DNA of 64,000 bases from an uncultured virus (IMG/VR IMGVR_UViG_3300030102_004953) (lineage: Duplodnaviria; Heunggongvirae; Uroviricota; Caudoviricetes), in the IMG/VR virus record IMGVR_UViG_3300030102_004953; one strand, given 5' to 3'. The translations under genes were made by a program, and so were the position numbers. Position 1 is the stretch's first letter; every line of letters starts with the position of its first letter. Under the pieces are notes generated by a model. It did not search any database. It was not told the DNA's origin and saw only the letters and a list, made by a program, of their open reading frames with translations. Positions 806 through 49,537 of this stretch are shown here, piece by piece.

Positions 806-3800
806 TATTACTATAGCCTGATTGTTTCTTGATTTCTAATAGTGTATCTACAGTATCTCTCATTTGTTCGATATGAGATACAATAACAACAAATTGGAAT
901 TGTGTTTTTAGATACTGAAAGAAGTTGTATATAGAGTTTAGGTTATCACTATCCATAGAGCCAAATCCCTCATCTATAGCGAGGAAGTTACCTCTTGGTA
1001 GATTACATACATTTATTAAACCAACTCGGAGAGCGAGTGATGATATGAATCTTTCCATACCACTTGATAACTCAAGAGGCCAGATATTATCATCATCATA
1101 AACAATATGATTGTTGATGGTTTTCCCATCCATTTCGAAAATAATACCAAAATCTACGATTTGAGATAGGATATTGTTCACCTCGCCCTCTATAGTTGGT
1201 AAAGCATCTTGTATTAGTTTATATGGAACACCATCCCTACTAACAGCGCTTAAGTAGTATTGATAAGCACCTACCTTATCTTCTAACTCTTCCATTTCAC
1301 TAATACTCTTTAACAAACCTTTTCTTTTACTATCTAATACTGCTATATTTTTATCAGCATCATATTTTTTACCAGCATATTCCTTAATACCAGATTCTAG
1401 TATACTAATCTCTGTATCACATTCCTCTATTTTTTTCTCTACAATTCTATTGTGTATAATAGATTTTTTTTGTCTTTCAAACTTATCTATATCTTCTAAG
1501 ATATACTTTTTGTTTTGTTTTAAGGATTTAGCTTTTTCTATGATTACTTCTTTGTTATTTGATAGTTTTTGTAATTTTATATTTAAGTTTTCTACTATCT
1601 TTGTTAATGCGTTATACTCATCTTCTTTTAATTCTAAACTATTCACTTTATTTTTTATCTTTTCTATATCCGACAAATATTCTGTTCTCTGCTCTTTATG
1701 TAATTGAATAGATTCAATAGCGTTTTTAGCATCTTTTACAAATGGATTAGTTGTACAAGCATCACAATCTTCATTCCATTTCCAACTTTGTAATTTATCA
1801 ATAGCGCCTTGTTCAACTTGTATTTCTGATTCTAAGGTTAGTATTAACTTTTCGTAATTAAGTAAATTTCTTTTCTCATTTTCAAGTTCAGATAAATCTG
1901 GCTTTGTAATATTAACTTTATTCTTTTTTATTTCGTTTTCTACTTCTTCTATTCTTTCTTCTGTATTAGAAAACTCATCAGCTAAACTTTTAGTTTTTAA
2001 TTTTACATCTTCTAAGTTTTCATTTAGTTCTTCAATATCTTTTACATTATCAATAGGTTTTAATTCTGATACTAACTTAAATCTTTTACTTTCTTCATCA
2101 CTCTTTTCTTCCTCAATCTTTTGTAATTGATTTGTAAAATCTTTTAGTTTTATTTTCTCTGAATCTATTAATGACATTGTTGTAGTTAGCTCATCTTCAA
2201 AGTTAGATTTTTGAAAACTTTTTAATATAGCTGATTCTTCTTTTACTTTCTCAGATGCTAACTGCCATAACTTATCAAACACACCAATACCCATAAATTG
2301 AGCTAATAATTCTTTCTTTTCTTTTTGTGTTTTATCAAGAAATATACCTGAGTTATTCTGAGATGATAATGTTGTTAAAAGAAAATCATCGTAGTTACCA
2401 ATAACATTTTTAATGTTGTTGTTAGTTGTTCTTCTTTGGTCACCATTCATAGATATCATTTGATTTAGTGATTCATCCCACCTAGTAAAATTAACATCTA
2501 CTTTTACGTGTCCATTACGTTGTTTTTTACCTTTTCTTTCAATGTAGTAATCTACACCATCAATTTCTATATTTAGCTTACATCTAAACCTATCTTTTTT
2601 ATTATTCAAAACCATCTCTGCTTTGTAAGCTCTACTACAATTATCAAATAAACAAAACGATAGTGCATCTAACATAGCAGATTTACCACTAGCATTAGGT
2701 GCAAATACTCCAATAATTCCATTTAGTTTAGTAAAGTCAACTACATTGTTTTCTCCATAACTAAACATATTATCAAACTCAAATTTCTTTATCTTCCAAT
2801 TTATATTTCGTTGTACATCTTCTTCTGGTAATACTTGATTTAATTCATCATTGATTTCTTTTATCTTTAGTTCAGTATTATCATCTACAAAGTATTCATC
2901 TTTTACGTAGTTTAAAATTAATTCGTTTTGGTAATCCACATTAGATACATCACCAATGCTTATTTTATTGCCTGTAGAATTATCTGTTATAATACTATCT
3001 ACTTTATATATTTTACTTTCTGATAATTTAGGATTGTCATTTTTTATAATTGATAATACCTTTTTTAATTCTGTATCAGTTGTATTTTTAGAACGTAATC
3101 TTAACCTACCATTTTTTGGAATCAAAGTTGCCCAATCTTCAGTAACAATCTTTCCATCTACTACATCAATAGTTATATGCCCATAATCATTAGGAAGTTC
3201 TTTATGTGTAAATGTACGTGATTCAACGTCCCAAACAGATATTCCGTGTCCTAATAATGCTTCTCCATAGTTTTGTTGTACTAAGGAACCACAATATCTT
3301 ATAATAGGTTTACCACTTGATTTATCATACTCTTGTAATGTTTGCATCTTATGAATATCGCCAAGTAAAACCATATCAAACCCATCCATACTTTCCATCT
3401 TAACTTTACTTGGTAGTTTAAAACCTAAATCTGTTAGTGATTGGTCTACTGTTCCGTGATACAACAATACTTTGGTATCACCCTCTACATTCTCAGCTCT
3501 AAGATAATCTTCTTCTTTATCCCAAACATCCCATACAACAAATGATACATCAGCAAACTTGTAGACACCACTATCTTTAAAGTAATATAGATTTGGATGA
3601 TTTAGATTCTCTACAATCGGTGTCAATACATCTAATCTATGCTGATTATTTAGATTACAATCGTGATTACCTGCGATTATTATTGTTGGAACTATATCAG
3701 ATAAGTTTTTAAATAACCTCGACAACTGGTCTACTAACTCAGGCGACATCTCTGTTTTACTATGTGCTATATCACCACCAATATAAACAACACTATCTTC

Positions 3801-36783: not shown

Positions 36784-37260
36784 TTAAGAGATTTTAACTG
36801 AGTGCTTCTCTGGCTTTGCTGGCTCCACTTTCGGAATCTGAATGGATAATAATCCATCTTTGAATGAAGCCTTGATTTTCTTACCATCGAGAAGTTCACC
36901 AAGTTCAAATTGTCTCTTGAATGAAGATTGTTTTAATTCTCTACGAATTACTTTTGCACCTGCATCATCAAACAATCCGTGTTTGTTTCCAGCGATAGTT
37001 AGTATACCATCCTCTACATCAATAGATAAGTCTTTCTTATCTAAGCCAGGAATCTCAGCGACAACACCAACTTTATCATCGTATTCATATACGTTGACTT
37101 TTGGGTATGCTGTTCCTTGCATTGGATTGACACCAACACTTTTAGTCATCTCAGGAAATTGAGCTGATACTATCTGGTCAAACATTTTATCAAAGGGGGT
37201 TAAAAAAGAATCCCTATCTAACATAGGGAGTGTGCGATTTTTAAAGACTACTTTAGTCAT
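36784..37260 (-). CDS. Hsp20 small heat-shock protein
   Basis: YPKVNVYE...EIPG...LTIAG...FKRQF...ASFKDGLLSI; AGGAG RBS before MTKVVF. Confidence 0.92.
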   Translation of the reverse strand: MTKVVFKNRTLPMLDRDSFLTPFDKMFDQIVSAQFPEMTKSVGVNPMQGTAYPKVNVYEYDDKVGVVAEIPGLDKKDLSIDVEDGILTIAGNKHGLFDDAGAKVIRRELKQSSFKRQFELGELLDGKKIKASFKDGLLSIQIPKVEPAKPEKHSVKIS

Positions 37261-37450
37261 TGTATTCTCCTGTTGTTTACTTTCGCTAAACTTGAGATTG
37301 ATTCTTTCGACATCATATCTCATTTACTATATCAGCCTCATTTGAGCGCTGAATTCTTCTGTTAATAAATAGTAGGACACCAATTTTTAAGTTATTTATA
37401 TCGTGAGAACTAAAAATTTAGTGCCCTACTTTTTAAATTTTGAAATTTAT

Positions 37451-37845
37451 GGGGATGTTGGATTAGCGATTACCAACAACTTTCTCGCTCAGATTTATTT
37501 GCCCTTGTACCTACTACCCATCAGTTACGATGATTCTCTTCATAGATGGTTAGTCTACGTCAAAGTGAGTATAACCTCTGTAGTATTGCTTTATCTCTCT
37601 GAGTTTAGATTGATTCAGCCACAAGATGGGATTTCAGTTTTACCCTTACCCATAACAAGGTCATAAGAATCGCTTCTTATTTTATTCTGAAAGTACCTTC
37701 TCCAACTACTATCGTAGGGTATTGTCAACATTTAGCCGAATACCAACTCACCACAAGTCTTGAAGCGGATTGCCTTATGGGCTTCCTATGGTTACCCATT
37801 ATTCAGCCAATCCCATACAGAGTTAATTACTCTCCGTACTTCTCA
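37451..37845 (-). ncRNA. Large (~400 nt) structured ncRNA of unrecognised family
   Basis: GC-richer intergenic block with no credible ORF; many helices, GNRA tetraloops and G-U pairs on the minus strand; boxB/boxA-like leader. Confidence 0.7.
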
Positions 37846-37931
37846 AAATTTCAAATTGTCAAAAAACTTTTGTGTCATTCGAGACACATAATATAAGTAT
37901 AAACTTATTTTCTAAAATACAATTTTTTTTT

Positions 37932-38600
37932 CTAATACGCTGGTTGCACAATAGGATGTATAAATGATATCAACATATATCGTACACCCTCTGATATAGG
38001 TCTTGCACCGTGTTTGTGTGTAACTAAACTTGGTGCTAAAACACTCCAACCTGGCTGAGCTTGTAAAGTTAGATTGTATTTTTTAAAATAAGTTCCGCCA
38101 CCAATAAAATTATCATTCAATGATGTATTAAATGTAAAGTACGAACTATCCATATGTGTATCTAAGTAGGATTGATTCTCAATCGTGTACCTAACCAAAA
38201 AAGTTTCATCAGCAAAATCTTCTGCTTTTTTACCAGCTATCTGATATATGTTTAAAGCGTGTGGTAGTAACCAATTTTGTAAAACTAACTGAAATACTTC
38301 ATACAATCTAGCATCAAAATCTTTTAGTAATATATCGTTGGTTGGGTAATGTTCGTGTCTACCTTTAGTCCAATTTTGTTCAGGCATTTCTGAAGCCATT
38401 TTTGTAATAGTATCACAAAACCTTTGTGAAAAAATTGGCATTAGATGTATATCTGTACCTACTGTATTTTTTTCTATTTCTTCAGAAACTAATTCAGATG
38501 GTGCGCCAGATGATAATATTGGATTCAAGTAATTGTGAATCCAATTATCATCGTATCTAAGAAAATTACTTTGCACGTCTTTTTTTACCACCTTGTCCAC
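37932..38600 (-). CDS. 2OG-Fe(II) oxygenase, lysyl-hydroxylase (PLOD C-terminal)-like
   Basis: FLVRY...THMDSS...GGGTYF...HKHGARP...RYMLISF. Confidence 0.85.
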   Translation of the reverse strand: MDKVVKKDVQSNFLRYDDNWIHNYLNPILSSGAPSELVSEEIEKNTVGTDIHLMPIFSQRFCDTITKMASEMPEQNWTKGRHEHYPTNDILLKDFDARLYEVFQLVLQNWLLPHALNIYQIAGKKAEDFADETFLVRYTIENQSYLDTHMDSSYFTFNTSLNDNFIGGGTYFKKYNLTLQAQPGWSVLAPSLVTHKHGARPISEGVRYMLISFIHPIVQPAY

Positions 38601-38703
38601 GATAAGGTTTTATCGCAGTTTTTTTAGTTCCTCTACCAGCACCTTGTCTGGTTTTTTTCTTTACTGGTTTTCTTACTTTTGTTCCATCAAGTGTTCTTGC
38701 CAT
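38566..38703 (-). CDS. Small highly basic protein (45 aa)
   Basis: Hand-translated MARTLDG...KKKTRQG...KPYRGQGGKKRRAK. Confidence 0.65.
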   Translation of the reverse strand: MARTLDGTKVRKPVKKKTRQGAGRGTKKTAIKPYRGQGGKKRRAK

Positions 38704-38961
38704 TTATGATATTCTCTCCATAACTTTATTTTTCGGTAATACTCCAACAAATCTATCCACTTCAACACCACCATCTTCTATAACCACCGTTGGTACTGAA
38801 CGGACTCCGTATTTACTTGCTAATTCACTATCCTTATCTACATCAATAAACTGAATGTTATTTCCTTCATTAGCTAATTCTTTCATAATTGGTTTAAATT
38901 GTTGACAAGGACCACACCAAGTGGCACTAAAGTACTTAGTCGTTTTCATCATTTTCTCCAA
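38704..38961 (-). CDS. Thioredoxin
   Basis: WCGPC, VRSVPT. Confidence 0.9.
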   Translation of the reverse strand: MEKMMKTTKYFSATWCGPCQQFKPIMKELANEGNNIQFIDVDKDSELASKYGVRSVPTVVIEDGGVEVDRFVGVLPKNKVMERIS

Positions 38962-39009
38962 GTAAAATATTTTTGTGATATAGTTGTATTCTTATTTGCG
39001 TAAGGTACA

Positions 39010-39897
39010 TTAACTTTTATTATAGTCATTTCCCTTAAATTCTTCTTTTGGCTTTGCATTACGTTTCCTCTGTTGATGATATACTTTTTGGTTCTTCATC
39101 ATCTGTCCTAAATCGTGTTCCGTTTTAGAATTAGTTTCTTTACTATGTCTGTAAGCGCCGTACTTTCTATAATTATAATCTAACCAACGCTTATATTGAA
39201 ATTTATTTAAATCTTCGTTTTCTAACTCCCAATTTTCTTCATACGTATCTCTACGTATTGGAATCAGAGCTGCTACGGGTTTATCTTTTTCTATTTTAAC
39301 TGTGCAGTTTTCTTTAAAAGCTATATTAATCCATATATCATATACCATCCAATCAGTTTCTAGTATACCAGCTTGAATTGTATATGGTTTTGGTTTACTA
39401 TATCTGTAGTAATCGTTAATTGGGTCTGTAATTAGTAATCCCCAACCTGGTGGTGTTTCGAATATACAACCAGTCCAAATTGTCATAATGTTTTGTTCTA
39501 CTTTACCAAATGATAGTAAATCACTTCTCTTAGTTAGAATCTTTGATAGCTCTTCATTCTTTTCAAAAGTATCTTTATACCTATCATCGAATGATAATAC
39601 TTTATCTTTTAGGTAAGAACTATCAGCATCCCAAGCTCCCATTTCTAATAATTCAAAACTCTTAGATTGTTCAGGCATCTTTTGTATATGCCCTACTTCA
39701 TCAGGATGTTGTTCATACTTTATAGTAATATCTACAGGTGGGTAGATGTAGTAACCTGCTTTGTTAGCGTGATTAAAAGGACCACAATATTTTAAAGCAT
39801 CTCTAAACTGATTAGATACTTTACCTAATCCAAGTGTCGGTGATGCCTTTTCTATTCTGCAACTTTGATTGTGTAACCTATGTACTTTTAATTTAAT
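39010..39897 (-). CDS. DUF6065-like (dUTPase-fold-like) protein, probable ATT start
   Basis: Open frame extends 73 codons upstream of the first ATG and includes CGPF.HAN..GY.IYPP.D; TPPGWGL...GILETDW. Confidence 0.6.
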   Translation of the reverse strand: MKLKVHRLHNQSCRIEKASPTLGLGKVSNQFRDALKYCGPFNHANKAGYYIYPPVDITIKYEQHPDEVGHIQKMPEQSKSFELLEMGAWDADSSYLKDKVLSFDDRYKDTFEKNEELSKILTKRSDLLSFGKVEQNIMTIWTGCIFETPPGWGLLITDPINDYYRYSKPKPYTIQAGILETDWMVYDIWINIAFKENCTVKIEKDKPVAALIPIRRDTYEENWELENEDLNKFQYKRWLDYNYRKYGAYRHSKETNSKTEHDLGQMMKNQKVYHQQRKRNAKPKEEFKGNDYNKS

Positions 39898-39906
39898 ACA
39901 ATACCT

Positions 39907-40401
39907 CTATATATCTTTTACTGATTTTTCTTGGTTTTCTTTTTCTTCTTTAATTTCTTTCTTAAACTCTTTTTTCTTACCACCGTGGTAATCATAAGCG
40001 TGTCCTTCTTCTATTAAGATATCATTCACACTTACCCAACCATCAGCTGTACAATCTATACTATGATTCTCATCTAATATACATTCGCTGATGTAAGGAC
40101 CTACATTATCTGGATCTACAAATATCTCTCCAAGAACTCTACCAAATTTACCTGTTCCGAATGATTTAAGTTTAAAAACTCCGCCTTCTAATAATTCTTT
40201 ATTACGAGCTTTAGCTGCTAAACCTTTTTCTTTTTCAGCTAAATCTCTTGTTCTTGATTCCCAAGTATCGATACCCATATATCGAACTCTCTTCTTAATC
40301 TTAATATCAAATCCCAAGTCGATATAACAATCGATTGTATCTCCATCTAAAACTTTTATTAGTTCTGCTTCATACTCACGAGCATCAAGTTTTTTTGCCA
40401 T
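39907..40401 (-). CDS. Thermonuclease (SNase-like)
   Basis: DGDTID, GIDTWES, GKFGRVLG. Confidence 0.85.
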   Translation of the reverse strand: MAKKLDAREYEAELIKVLDGDTIDCYIDLGFDIKIKKRVRYMGIDTWESRTRDLAEKEKGLAAKARNKELLEGGVFKLKSFGTGKFGRVLGEIFVDPDNVGPYISECILDENHSIDCTADGWVSVNDILIEEGHAYDYHGGKKKEFKKEIKEEKENQEKSVKDI

Positions 40402-48721: not shown

Positions 48722-48818
48722 CAAAAACTCCCTTAAATTAATAACTTAGGTATTAGTTTCTCTTTTTATTTTCTTAACTTTTTAAAGTAAATAGTATACA
48801 AGTTAAGTTTTATGTTTG

Positions 48819-48890
48819 TAGCCCGTAGGGGAATCGAACCCCTGTTGCAGGAATGAAAATCCTGAGTCCTAACCACTAGACGAACGGGCC
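48819..48890 (-). tRNA. tRNA-Glu(TTC)
   Basis: Cloverleaf; CAGGA-TTTTCAT-TCCTG anticodon arm; GGTTCGATTCC T arm; no encoded CCA. Confidence 0.93.
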
Positions 48891-48895
48891 AGTAG

Positions 48896-49309
48896 TGGAG
48901 CTGGTGGGAATCGAACCCACGTCCAAACGCTTTCTCGATGAAGTCATTTACAGCTTAGTTAGTTTCAAATCGGTAGTAACTAACAACCCACCATATCCCC
49001 ATTTACTCAGATAGGTTTAACTGGTAGGGTTTATTGTCTCCCTACATTGACGATCGTGTCTAACTTGTTTTATGACCGAGTGTTAAACAAACTCAGTATC
49101 TTATGCAGCGTGTGCGTAAGATGGTTGAGAAGTACGAGCTGGTTCAATAAATGTATCAAACATACGCTCTGAATTAGCTAGATGCCAATCCACTTTCAAC
49201 CCTTGTAGCGATTTATCGCCATTTAGGTTTTGTGAGTCTTATTAAAGAGTCTACTCATACTCTGCTGCACTTCATTGTCAAATAACGCCTGTCGAAACCA
49301 GTCAGCCCC
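48896..49309 (-). ncRNA. ssrA: tmRNA
   Basis: GGGGCTG/CAGCTCCA acceptor with G3-U; GGTTTCGAC; GGACGTGGGTTCGATTCCCAC; tag frame ending YAHAA-TAA. Confidence 0.93.
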
Positions 49310-49313
49310 ATAG

Positions 49314-49386
49314 AGCCAGAGATAGGATTCGAACCTACGACCTAGTGATTACAAATCACTTGCTCTACCAACTGAGCTACTCTGGC
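49314..49386 (-). tRNA. tRNA-Thr(TGT)
   Basis: Canonical cloverleaf; AGTGA-TTTGTAA-TCACT anticodon arm. Confidence 0.95.
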
Positions 49387-49464
49387 ATAAAGTAGTGGGG
49401 AAGTCCTCACGCCCTATTGTTTGATATTATCGCTCGCCAGTTTGTGGTGTTTATCCACTACTTG

Positions 49465-49537
49465 TGGAGCTGACAGGAGTCGAACCTGCGACCTCCTCCG
49501 TGCAAGGGAGGCGCTCTCCCAACTGAGCTACAGCCCC
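49465..49537 (-). tRNA. tRNA-Ala(TGC)
   Basis: GGGGCTG acceptor with G3-U70; CCTCC-CTTGCAC-GGAGG anticodon arm. Confidence 0.95.

Follow-up and report, generated by a model that had tools for sequence, protein, structure and literature searches.

The stretch of DNA considered here, 64,000 nucleotides of the uncultured virus IMGVR_UViG_3300030102_004953 and called the window in the following, carries on its minus strand a gap between an open reading frame (ORF) of 222 aa (38600-37932) and hsp20, a gene for a small heat-shock protein (36784..37260, 158 aa, ATG at 37260; PF00011, E 3.7e-20). Read on the minus strand, which applies to all coordinates of this locus given below, the gap contains an A-run with a promoter-like block, a small hairpin with a U-run, the element that is the subject of this study, a long hairpin and a leader of 110 nt. 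An initial annotation, made from the letters alone, had flagged 37451..37845 as an unrecognised, ornate non-coding RNA. In our comparative alignment the element extends over 37855-37439 (-), approximately 417 nt, and encodes a conserved structured RNA; it is thus slightly longer than the flagged piece, because the helix P0 adds about 10 bases per side. It ends 179 nt upstream of the hsp20 start and has the same orientation. The borders are marked independently by one relative (L021), which lacks exactly the equivalent of window 37846-37449. The element is a double-core member of the manA RNA class (Rfam RF01745) and not a wholly new class. What remains as novelty is its variant architecture, namely two cores, one closing helix and exchanged P8 strands, which is well supported by covariation.

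Folding of the single sequence was only mildly unusual (z of -2.26 for the minus and -1.64 for the plus strand), hence the decisive evidence for a structured RNA is comparative. Relatives of hsp20 were collected together with their flanks, which gave 117 relatives in viral contigs, and the manA model was run on the records of 40 of 80 loci. Furthermore, a pattern of 25 bases from the middle hairpin of the element (hairpin H) found at least 120 stretches in viral contigs, from which 114 full-length segments with 72 distinct cores were obtained. The alignment A1, on which all counts given below are based, comprises 77 distinct copies: the window, 73 copies fetched by the pattern and three diverged copies found via Rfam. 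The helices of the cores were taken from the Rfam consensus, the long-range helices from corrected mutual information and reading of the alignment, and all of them were then mapped to alignment columns. Corrected mutual information was used because a loose de novo listing of helices was swamped by chance AU/GU triplets. The sequence of hairpin H was fixed by the search pattern, and its invariance is therefore no evidence.

The resulting model of 116 pairs was paired in 92.9% of the alignment cells compared to 79.0% in shuffled alignments, with changes on both sides in 83 pairs compared to 62.9 in the shuffles. Its covariation score of 0.409 (0.159 when shuffled) was reached by 0 of 500 shuffles, and controls in which the helices were slid by 1-3 columns gave 34.8-47.6% pairing and scores of 0.066-0.118. 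Covariation in 77 copies thus confirms, beyond chance, a large structured RNA on the minus strand where the initial annotation had placed it, and the description as a big, ornate and conserved non-coding RNA upstream of hsp20 is borne out.

The term "unrecognised" did not hold, however. In the cmscan search against Rfam, the 3' half of the element (37654-37452) matches manA with 56.6 bits, above the gathering score of 55.2, and with this result the claim of a new class falls. manA is the only Rfam family at gathering score in the region, and the whole 64-kb window contains one such manA match. The 5' half gives a second and weaker match below the cut-off, namely 30.0 bits (E 2.8e-6) over 37838-37623 in a search with 249 bases that includes the middle hairpin and covers the full model length; cut short, the same half scores 15.2 bits. 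In the nearest viral record the same two places score 57.3 and 29.9 bits. The initial annotation had proposed the cmscan search itself and had stated that a strong match to a known family would speak against novelty, which is what the search returned for the 3' half. Its interpretation as a whole is therefore partly supported, the structured RNA being correct and the new class not. It was right to keep the RNA apart from GOLLD, ROOL, RNase P and group I introns, for which there was no Rfam match at gathering score in the window and none at E up to 10 over 37200-38000. GOLLD, ROOL and OLE, from phages and bacteria, are large, multi-junction, pseudoknotted non-coding RNAs that often occur in phages and for which no biochemical role is known. 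The element likewise is large and has several junctions and a pseudoknot, but it differs from them in size and motifs and has, at the thresholds just given, no Rfam match to any of the three. The combination of both halves is a constant feature of the relatives: the 5' core lies upstream in all nine real manA matches of relatives, the nearest record included, and among the matches listed the 5' half is present in every one of the 72 distinct copies fetched by the pattern. A tenth match (L091, 18.8 bits) is situated in coding sequence and looks spurious.

The 5' core (core A, 5' part; 37689..37838) is defined by covariation and by the 30.0-bit manA match. It begins with P1 (37838-32/37822-16), which is 98.3% paired with changes on both sides in five of seven pairs, followed by the 5' strand of the outer helix P2 (37814-11), by P3 (37807-06/37773-72) with the CUGAAUAA loop and by P3a (37799-95/37781-77), which is 100% paired with all five pairs changing on both sides. 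Then comes a four-way junction that consists of P4 (37765-60/37705-00), P5 with a GUGGUG loop (37758-46), P6 (37744-18) and P7 with a GNRA loop (37717-06). P4, P5 and P7 are 93.7%, 99.4% and 94.8% paired, each with both-side changes, and P6 is variable in length and 51-67% paired. The core ends with AGGUA and the 5' strand of P8 (37694-89). The 3' core (core B; 37503..37619), defined by covariation and situated within the Rfam match, repeats this order with P3' and its CUGAAUCA loop (37619-18/37589-88), P3a' (37610-07/37596-93), a four-way junction of P4' (37585-80/37517-12), P5' (37578-67), P6' (37565-36) and P7' (37533-18), and finally AGGU and the 3' strand of the helix PB (ACAAGG, 37508-03). 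Its helices are 96-100% paired, all with both-side changes; in P7' the 3' strand GAUGG pairs with UCAUCG, with 97.6% pairing and four pairs changing on both sides. The hairpin with the CUGAAUAA internal loop (P3, stem of two base pairs, UAAGG) is found in both cores, and its stems covary (P3: AU 38/GC 38/CG 1 and CG 68/UA 9; P3': AU 41/GC 36) with 100% pairing throughout. The four-way junction is common to both cores as well, with the GUGGUG loop in the 5' core and GUUAUA or GUUGUA instead in the 3' core.

Between the cores are located the hairpin P8a (37663..37680; 74.5% paired, with alignment shifts), whose loop L8 reads GCGAUU (37673-37668), and a segment (37626..37660) supported by covariation that contains the 5' strand of PB (CCUUGU, 37660-55) and hairpin H (37653-49/37630-26, loop UAAGGGUAAAACUGAAAU; 99.5% paired under the fixed search pattern). 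The 3' closing part (37452..37493) contains a strand UCUGAG (37493-88), the 3' strand of P8 (GAAAGU, 37484-79), the hairpin P9 (37478-73/37461-56; 100% paired, both-side changes in four of six pairs) with its loop L9 (AAUCGC, 37471-66), and the 3' strand of P2 (37455-52).

Five long-range contacts tie these parts together. The outer helix P2 pairs GGGA (37814-11) with UCCC (37455-52) in 100% of cases, with GC 69/AU 8 at one pair and with the variants GGAA/UUCC in 8 of 77 copies and GGGG/CCCC in 1 of 77. PB (CCUUGU 37660-55 with ACAAGG 37508-03) is 98.7% paired and shows both-side changes in four of six pairs. The kissing loop K1 joins L8 (37673-68) to L9 (37471-66) and is 95.0% paired, with both-side changes in three of six pairs and GC 43/AU 31/UA 2 at the first. 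In the pseudoknot PK the loop CUCAGA of P3a' (37603-598) pairs with UCUGAG (37493-88) in 100% of copies, two pairs being CG 56/UA 19 and AU 53/GC 13/UA 11. Finally, P8 connects ACUUUC (37694-89) with GAAAGU (37484-79). Outside the conserved ACUU/AAGU it is misaligned in A1, and it was therefore evaluated per sequence: 75 of 77 copies form 6 or more contiguous pairs, 69 of 77 reach 8 or more, and the duplexes of at least 6 pairs occur in 16 different versions, such as ACUUCAAG/CUUGAAGU and ACUUCUAG/CUAGAAGU. Around all this lies the leader/tail helix P0, whose strands at 37846..37855 (UUUGAAAUUU) and 37439..37448 (AAAUUUCAAA) were assigned from the alignment and from a test of cognate duplexes. 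P0 is AU-rich and poorly aligned, 73-75% paired with both-side changes, and the cognate leader/tail duplex beats the non-cognate one in 59 of 77 copies (mean -9.55 vs -8.05 kcal/mol; -4.83 when shuffled). A partly independent check on the fold is L090, the most diverged copy, which was found via hsp20 and Rfam and not via the pattern. It keeps P2 (GGGG/CCCC), PB (CUUCAU/AUGAAG) and PK (CUUUGA/UCAGAG) by compensatory letters; for K1 and P8, pairing in this copy requires a shift of the register.

The relation of the two cores becomes clear from the Rfam consensus line, in which the 5' strand of P8 comes after AGGUA, while one U, P9 and the outer helix come after the 3' strand of P8. In the 5' core AGGUA is followed by ACUUUC; its partner GAAAGU lies near the far 3' end, with one U between it and P9. 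In the 3' core AGGU is followed by ACAAGG, the partner of which (CCUUGU) stands one U before the middle hairpin H, which carries a P9-like loop (UAA...AAU). Hence, the two cores reciprocally exchange their manA P8 strands; the same layout can be described as one core that is circularly permuted and sits inside P8 of its neighbour. This exchange explains why, in the Rfam alignment of the 3' half, the columns of the outer helix are empty and the P8 pairs mostly non-standard, and why the model recruits AUCCC from within H to serve the 5' half as its outer strand. The P8 pairs of the model are also non-standard in the cmscan alignment of the 5' half. Thus, two features of a canonical manA RNA are arranged differently here: the outer helix (GGGaG...CuCCC) does not close one core but both, and P8 is no hairpin within the core after AGGUA but pairs across the cores. 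Complementary L8 and L9 loops (aCUgu/acAgu in the Rfam consensus) are present in the form of K1. Two adjacent matches to one Rfam model, each half with the CUGAAUAA hairpin and a four-way junction, could also be read as two independent tandem manA aptamers, each folding alone, in the manner of tandem riboswitches. However, a single outer helix spans both halves, from the 5' end of the first to the 3' end of the second, all eight GGAA copies carry UUCC at the far 3' end with the AUCCC of H unchanged, the P8 strands pair across the halves, and L8 exists only in the first half, with its partner loop in the far-3' hairpin of the second. We regard independent aptamers as highly improbable. An outer helix with the AUCCC inside H, as placed by the covariance model, was rejected, since it is the far 3' end, and not H, that carries the compensating letters in the eight GGAA copies.

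The nine pairings named in the initial annotation can be assigned to this fold in six cases, all backed by covariation. TACGGAG/CTCTGTA is P1, the two ATGGG/CCCAT pairs are P3a and hairpin H, ATAAGAA-GCGA-TTCTTAT is P8a with its loop L8, the long-range CTCAG/CTGAG is the pseudoknot, and TGTTGG/CCAACA is P9. The other three were not recovered. In GGCTGAAT/ATTCGGCT, the part GGCUGAAU represents the P3 pair and the conserved CUGAAUAA internal loop, and the proposed partner lies in the variable P6 arm, the letters of which are quite different in other clades. The CCAT of ATGG-GTAA-CCAT is present only in the clade of the window itself, and the GATGG of CCATC/GATGG is the 3' strand of P7', engaged with UCAUCG. 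Some further contacts were considered and dropped. For the P3a loop of the 5' core, several registers of a pseudoknot with the P8a strands and the ACUU segment were tried by eye, none of which held across clades, and a GUAC pairing between the two AGGUAC segments is contradicted by uncompensated variants in L005, L131 and L163. For a putative kissing contact, the loops GUGGUG in the 5' core and UAACCA in the 3' core offer a complementarity of four bases, and the four copies with altered loops (L114, L140, L163, L169) do not compensate in register.

In the parts of Weinberg et al. 2010 (PMC2864571) used here, manA is a motif with a single domain, found in potential 5' untranslated regions of mannose/fructose, nucleotide, ibpA and photosynthesis genes. 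With the motif described there (RF01745) the element shares GGGA-UG-(R)C-UGAAUAA, UAAGG, the GUGGUG loop, AGGUA and the four-way junction, the complementarity between the loops of its last two hairpins, the UAA...AAU loop of the terminal hairpin, and also the occurrence in marine phages and the position before ibpA-type genes. It differs from it in having two cores and not one, with one outer helix and the leader/tail helix around both, in the location of P8 between the cores and not in a hairpin, in a 3' core without its own L8 hairpin that forms a pseudoknot from the P3a' loop instead, and in length (about 417 nt vs 192 model positions). In the 2010 alignment manA.sto, five sequences are 3' halves of this RNA type with empty outer-helix columns, and the signature of the 5' half, GGGAUUG, occurs there 0 times; none of its 20 occurrences in supplementary file 5 lies in that alignment. 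Of the other literature, Rfam 14 and the CaCoFold preprint only mention a corrected manA structure, and the S-CREM1 paper lists a single-core manA match. A double-core layout was not found in the searchable literature on manA and RF01745, which for the preprint discussed next means its main text.

According to the main text of this preprint (bioRxiv 10.64898/2026.07.01.735769), single-core manA RNAs of less than 200 nt form RNA-only decamers and a 60-mer cage in vitro, in which the protomers are held by L5-L7' and L8-L9' kissing loops and the oligomers are built from pentamers. The words tandem, full-length, flanking and in vivo are absent from that main text. As far as it describes them, these RNAs belong to the same family as the element, and a covarying L8-L9 kissing pair is present here too, although the loop numbers of the preprint may differ. 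There, the contacts connect separate molecules, whereas L8-L9 lies within one chain here; moreover, the assembly reported concerns the single-core form. Tentatively, the double-core RNA may be a natural covalent pseudo-dimer of manA, which would have arisen by tandem duplication and exchange of P8 strands, with formerly intermolecular loop contacts now made within one chain, and which would act as a free-standing, abundant particle of defined size, made from its own promoter and terminator, and not as a riboswitch. The contacts turned intramolecular would be L8-L9 and perhaps GUGGUG with UAACCA. Each core keeps one half of each loop contact pair, with GUGGUG only in the 5' core and UAACCA only in the 3' core. 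If this were true, the five published seed sequences and possibly some of the in vitro constructs would be halves of a larger natural RNA.

Regarding the expression of the RNA, its flanks are informative. The promoter-like block upstream (37888..37922) consists of the A-run, TTGTATTTTAG and TATACTTATATTAT, and a scan places TTTAGA-17-TATTAT at 37916-37888, which alone is not above shuffle expectation. Next follow the small variable hairpin (37888-37871) and AAAGUUUUUU, together 37861..37888. They are terminator-like by the scan, yet come after the promoter-like block, and their role can only be inferred. The stem letters of this hairpin differ between loci while remaining paired by eye, and it is absent in L005, L088 and L122. 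Downstream of the element, the long hairpin (37370..37429; -18.8 kcal/mol) has the base GUAGGGCAC/GUGUCCUAC followed by UAUUUAUU, and is the counterpart of the terminator hairpin of the relatives with the U-run interrupted here. Among the matches listed, a hairpin and U-rich run follow the element in 54 of 58 loci, with at least seven U of eight in 40 of 58 (counted by eye from the table), and the base stems of this hairpin differ between lineages yet stay paired. The promoter-like block precedes the element in relatives, too. Furthermore, a second promoter-like block with a small 5' hairpin is situated between the terminator-like hairpin and gp32, the gene that often follows, in eight of the nine gp32 loci printed. 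From its recurrence, the block seems to be the usual beginning of transcription units among these phages. In L084, L092, L094, L101, L117, L122 and L131 a block of A-run, TGTATTTT-like and TACTTATTA-like sequence with a small hairpin is seen before both the RNA and gp32, and in L088 and L089 the next gene has its own TTGACA-17-TATATT.

The genes behind the element vary. Among the matches listed, the first downstream ORF encodes a gp32-type single-strand DNA-binding protein (PF08804) in 46 of 57 copies with a callable ORF; hsp20 follows in three copies, each representing a lineage (window, L005, L090), a gene for a 174-aa protein in two, a Mom-family gene (PF25680, E 1.7e-43) in one (L085), and small or unknown ORFs in the remainder. 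The homologue of the 174-aa gene in the window (44576-44061) has no element upstream. In L085 a gene for tRNA-Gly(tcc) is located at 1333-1405 (-), about 65 nt behind the element and before the Mom-family gene. At the natural empty site of L021 (150-200), GACAATTT of the leader is joined directly to AAATTTCC of the tail, and the body is gone between short AAATTT repeats of P0, with promoter block, long hairpin and hsp20 leader (190 nt) all retained. Taken together, the promoter-like block and terminator-like hairpin of the element, its changing neighbours and its precise loss in one relative argue for an RNA gene, at least in this branch of manA, and not for a gene-specific switch; the family looks like a separate transcription unit whose product would be a stable folded RNA.

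The most obvious competing explanation is a cis-acting hsp20 leader, i.e. a riboswitch or sensor in which the double manA fold or a ligand decides on the passage of the hairpin 37429-37370 or on hsp20 translation. The short distance to hsp20 in the same orientation is in line with it, as are the lack of any visible second promoter block before hsp20 in the window, the weak U-run after the hairpin, which makes read-through likely, and the recurrence of hsp20 behind the element in three lineages. In fact, the degraded U-run (UAUUUAUU) and the missing second block suggest that the RNA is here probably also the 5' part of the hsp20 transcript. Nevertheless, a dedicated hsp20 switch is difficult to reconcile with the predominance of gp32-type genes behind the cassette, where a strong hairpin with U-run and, in eight of the nine loci printed, a separate promoter-like block intervene, with at least three other kinds of genes that follow it, or with L021, which lost the body and kept the rest of the hsp20 leader. 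Moreover, a scan of 40 hsp20 contigs gave a manA match (E up to 0.01) in nine, five of them above the cut-off, and only two of these matches are upstream of hsp20; an alternative pairing between the element and the downstream hairpin was not found. As to the placement in potential 5' untranslated regions described for manA, the element lies upstream of hsp20 here, and in 46 of 57 relatives the terminator-like hairpin and often a new promoter-like block intervene before the next gene. We consider the hsp20 leader rather unlikely, and the free-standing RNA is favoured over it.

A structured selfish or mobile cassette could be imagined as well, which would be moved or lost by recombination at the AAATTT-bearing end helix and would keep its fold so as to spread or persist itself, not to serve the phage. 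The occurrence in related phages at five or more different genomic places, the precise absence in L021 between short AAATTT repeats and the possession of its own promoter-like block and terminator-like hairpin fit such a view. However, the flanks of 700-1500 nt examined contain no transposase, integrase or homing-endonuclease gene, and strong purifying selection on approximately 100 base pairs in at least 77 copies together with the RNA-library contigs from four studies fits better to an RNA that is used. Mobility and function do not exclude each other, but as an explanation of the fold we judge mobility to be clearly improbable.

On balance, we therefore think it somewhat probable that the element is a double-core manA RNA with its own cassette, acting in trans as a folded particle rather than as a sensor for hsp20. 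As covariation shows, the leader/tail helix P0 and the outer helix P2 (GGGA/UCCC) enclose two manA-like cores. Each core combines a hairpin, in which CUGAAU(A/C)A forms the internal loop, with a four-way junction and AGGU(A) behind it, and the kissing loop L8-L9 and the pseudoknot CUCAGA/UCUGAG lock the fold. Transcription of this separate cassette would begin at the promoter-like block (37922-37888), and in most relatives it would end at the hairpin with the U-run. The particle might serve as scaffold or in assembly, as the preprint describes in vitro for the single-core RNA, or it might bind protein.

Several points weigh against this interpretation. The long-range helices were found on the same alignment that was used for counting, P0 and P6 are poorly aligned (51-75% paired), P8 of the window itself has only six pairs, and hairpin H could not vary under the search pattern. 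The gp32 contexts all come from one pattern scan and probably represent one syntenic lineage, hence they are no independent events. At the locus of the window nothing separates the RNA from hsp20, given the weak U-run and the absence of a visible second promoter block, which leaves some probability to a cis role here. Weinberg et al. 2010 (PMC2864571), in the part used here, consider manA to be probably cis-regulatory and list ibpA chaperones among its genes. The RNA-library contigs carry no transcript ends, strand or level, many of them come from relatives, and carry-over of DNA is possible.

These contigs, from four metatranscriptome runs of four studies, cover 37437-37841 and, belonging partly to relatives, indicate presence in RNA libraries and no more. 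Their cover stops near 37437-37450 and 37831-37841, in contigs that partly come from relatives with differing flanks, so that no ends, level or flank comparison is drawn from it. Three contigs of one run (X8) end at 37832-37841, two of them followed by letters that we take to be adapter-like. It may be that the 5' end of the RNA lies close to P1 and not at the P0 leader, or that these contigs are short inserts of relatives.

The assignment has some consequences for the family. manA has been an orphan RNA since 2010, and a fused and interlocked form with two cores changes what the native unit may be, all the more as part of the published manA seed alignment consists of half-molecules. The double-core form is widespread, with at least 120 matches in viral contigs and matching contigs in four metatranscriptome studies. 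The evidence for an RNA gene bears on the long-open question of the role of manA, and the full element is a ready-made construct for structural work, for example regarding whether it is a monomer or takes another assembly symmetry. On the level of annotation, the gap before hsp20 contains a manA-class RNA and not a new class.

The type of phage that carries the element widens the known range of manA. A blastn search with 37300-37950 against 50,697 phage records gave no match, and thus no cultured carrier by that route. hsp20 of the window has no close relative in isolated phages; the best tblastn matches show approximately 25-35% identity, the fuller-length ones about 30% (e.g. Methylophilales phage Melnitz). 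The gp32 proteins of the relatives are nearest to those of Microcystis phage Mel-JY01 (50%) and Flavobacterium phage immuto (43%), both with gaps of about 110 nt before gp32 and without manA match in their whole records, in a search that returned no match anywhere. CheckV-type completeness of related contigs points to genomes of approximately 180 kb. Judged by the relationships of hsp20 and gp32 and by this estimate of genome size, the carrier is a large marine phage that is uncultured, and does not belong to the classical T4-like cyanophages.

Some additional observations concern the surroundings. The hsp20 leader (37449-37261, minus strand) is conserved with or without the manA body (L021, L019, L004, L025, L087). 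The loop of its long hairpin carries a TATAAATA-like motif (37391-37384), which resembles a T4 late promoter, and a second small hairpin is found near 37347-37326. This leader may be the own regulator of hsp20, such as a thermosensor. L004 carries about 95 additional nt (100-195) that separate the element from the long hairpin; by eye this insertion resembles a tRNA, but ARAGORN does not call it. Further away, the window contains a transfer-messenger RNA (RF00023, 107.8 bits, 48893-49309), without an ARAGORN call as such, among tRNA-Glu, tRNA-Thr and tRNA-Ala (48818-49537, minus strand). The upstream neighbours of the element (37932-40401, minus strand) are the 222-aa ORF without Pfam match, a basic ORF of 45 aa, a thioredoxin (PF00085), a DUF6065 protein and a homologue of staphylococcal nuclease.

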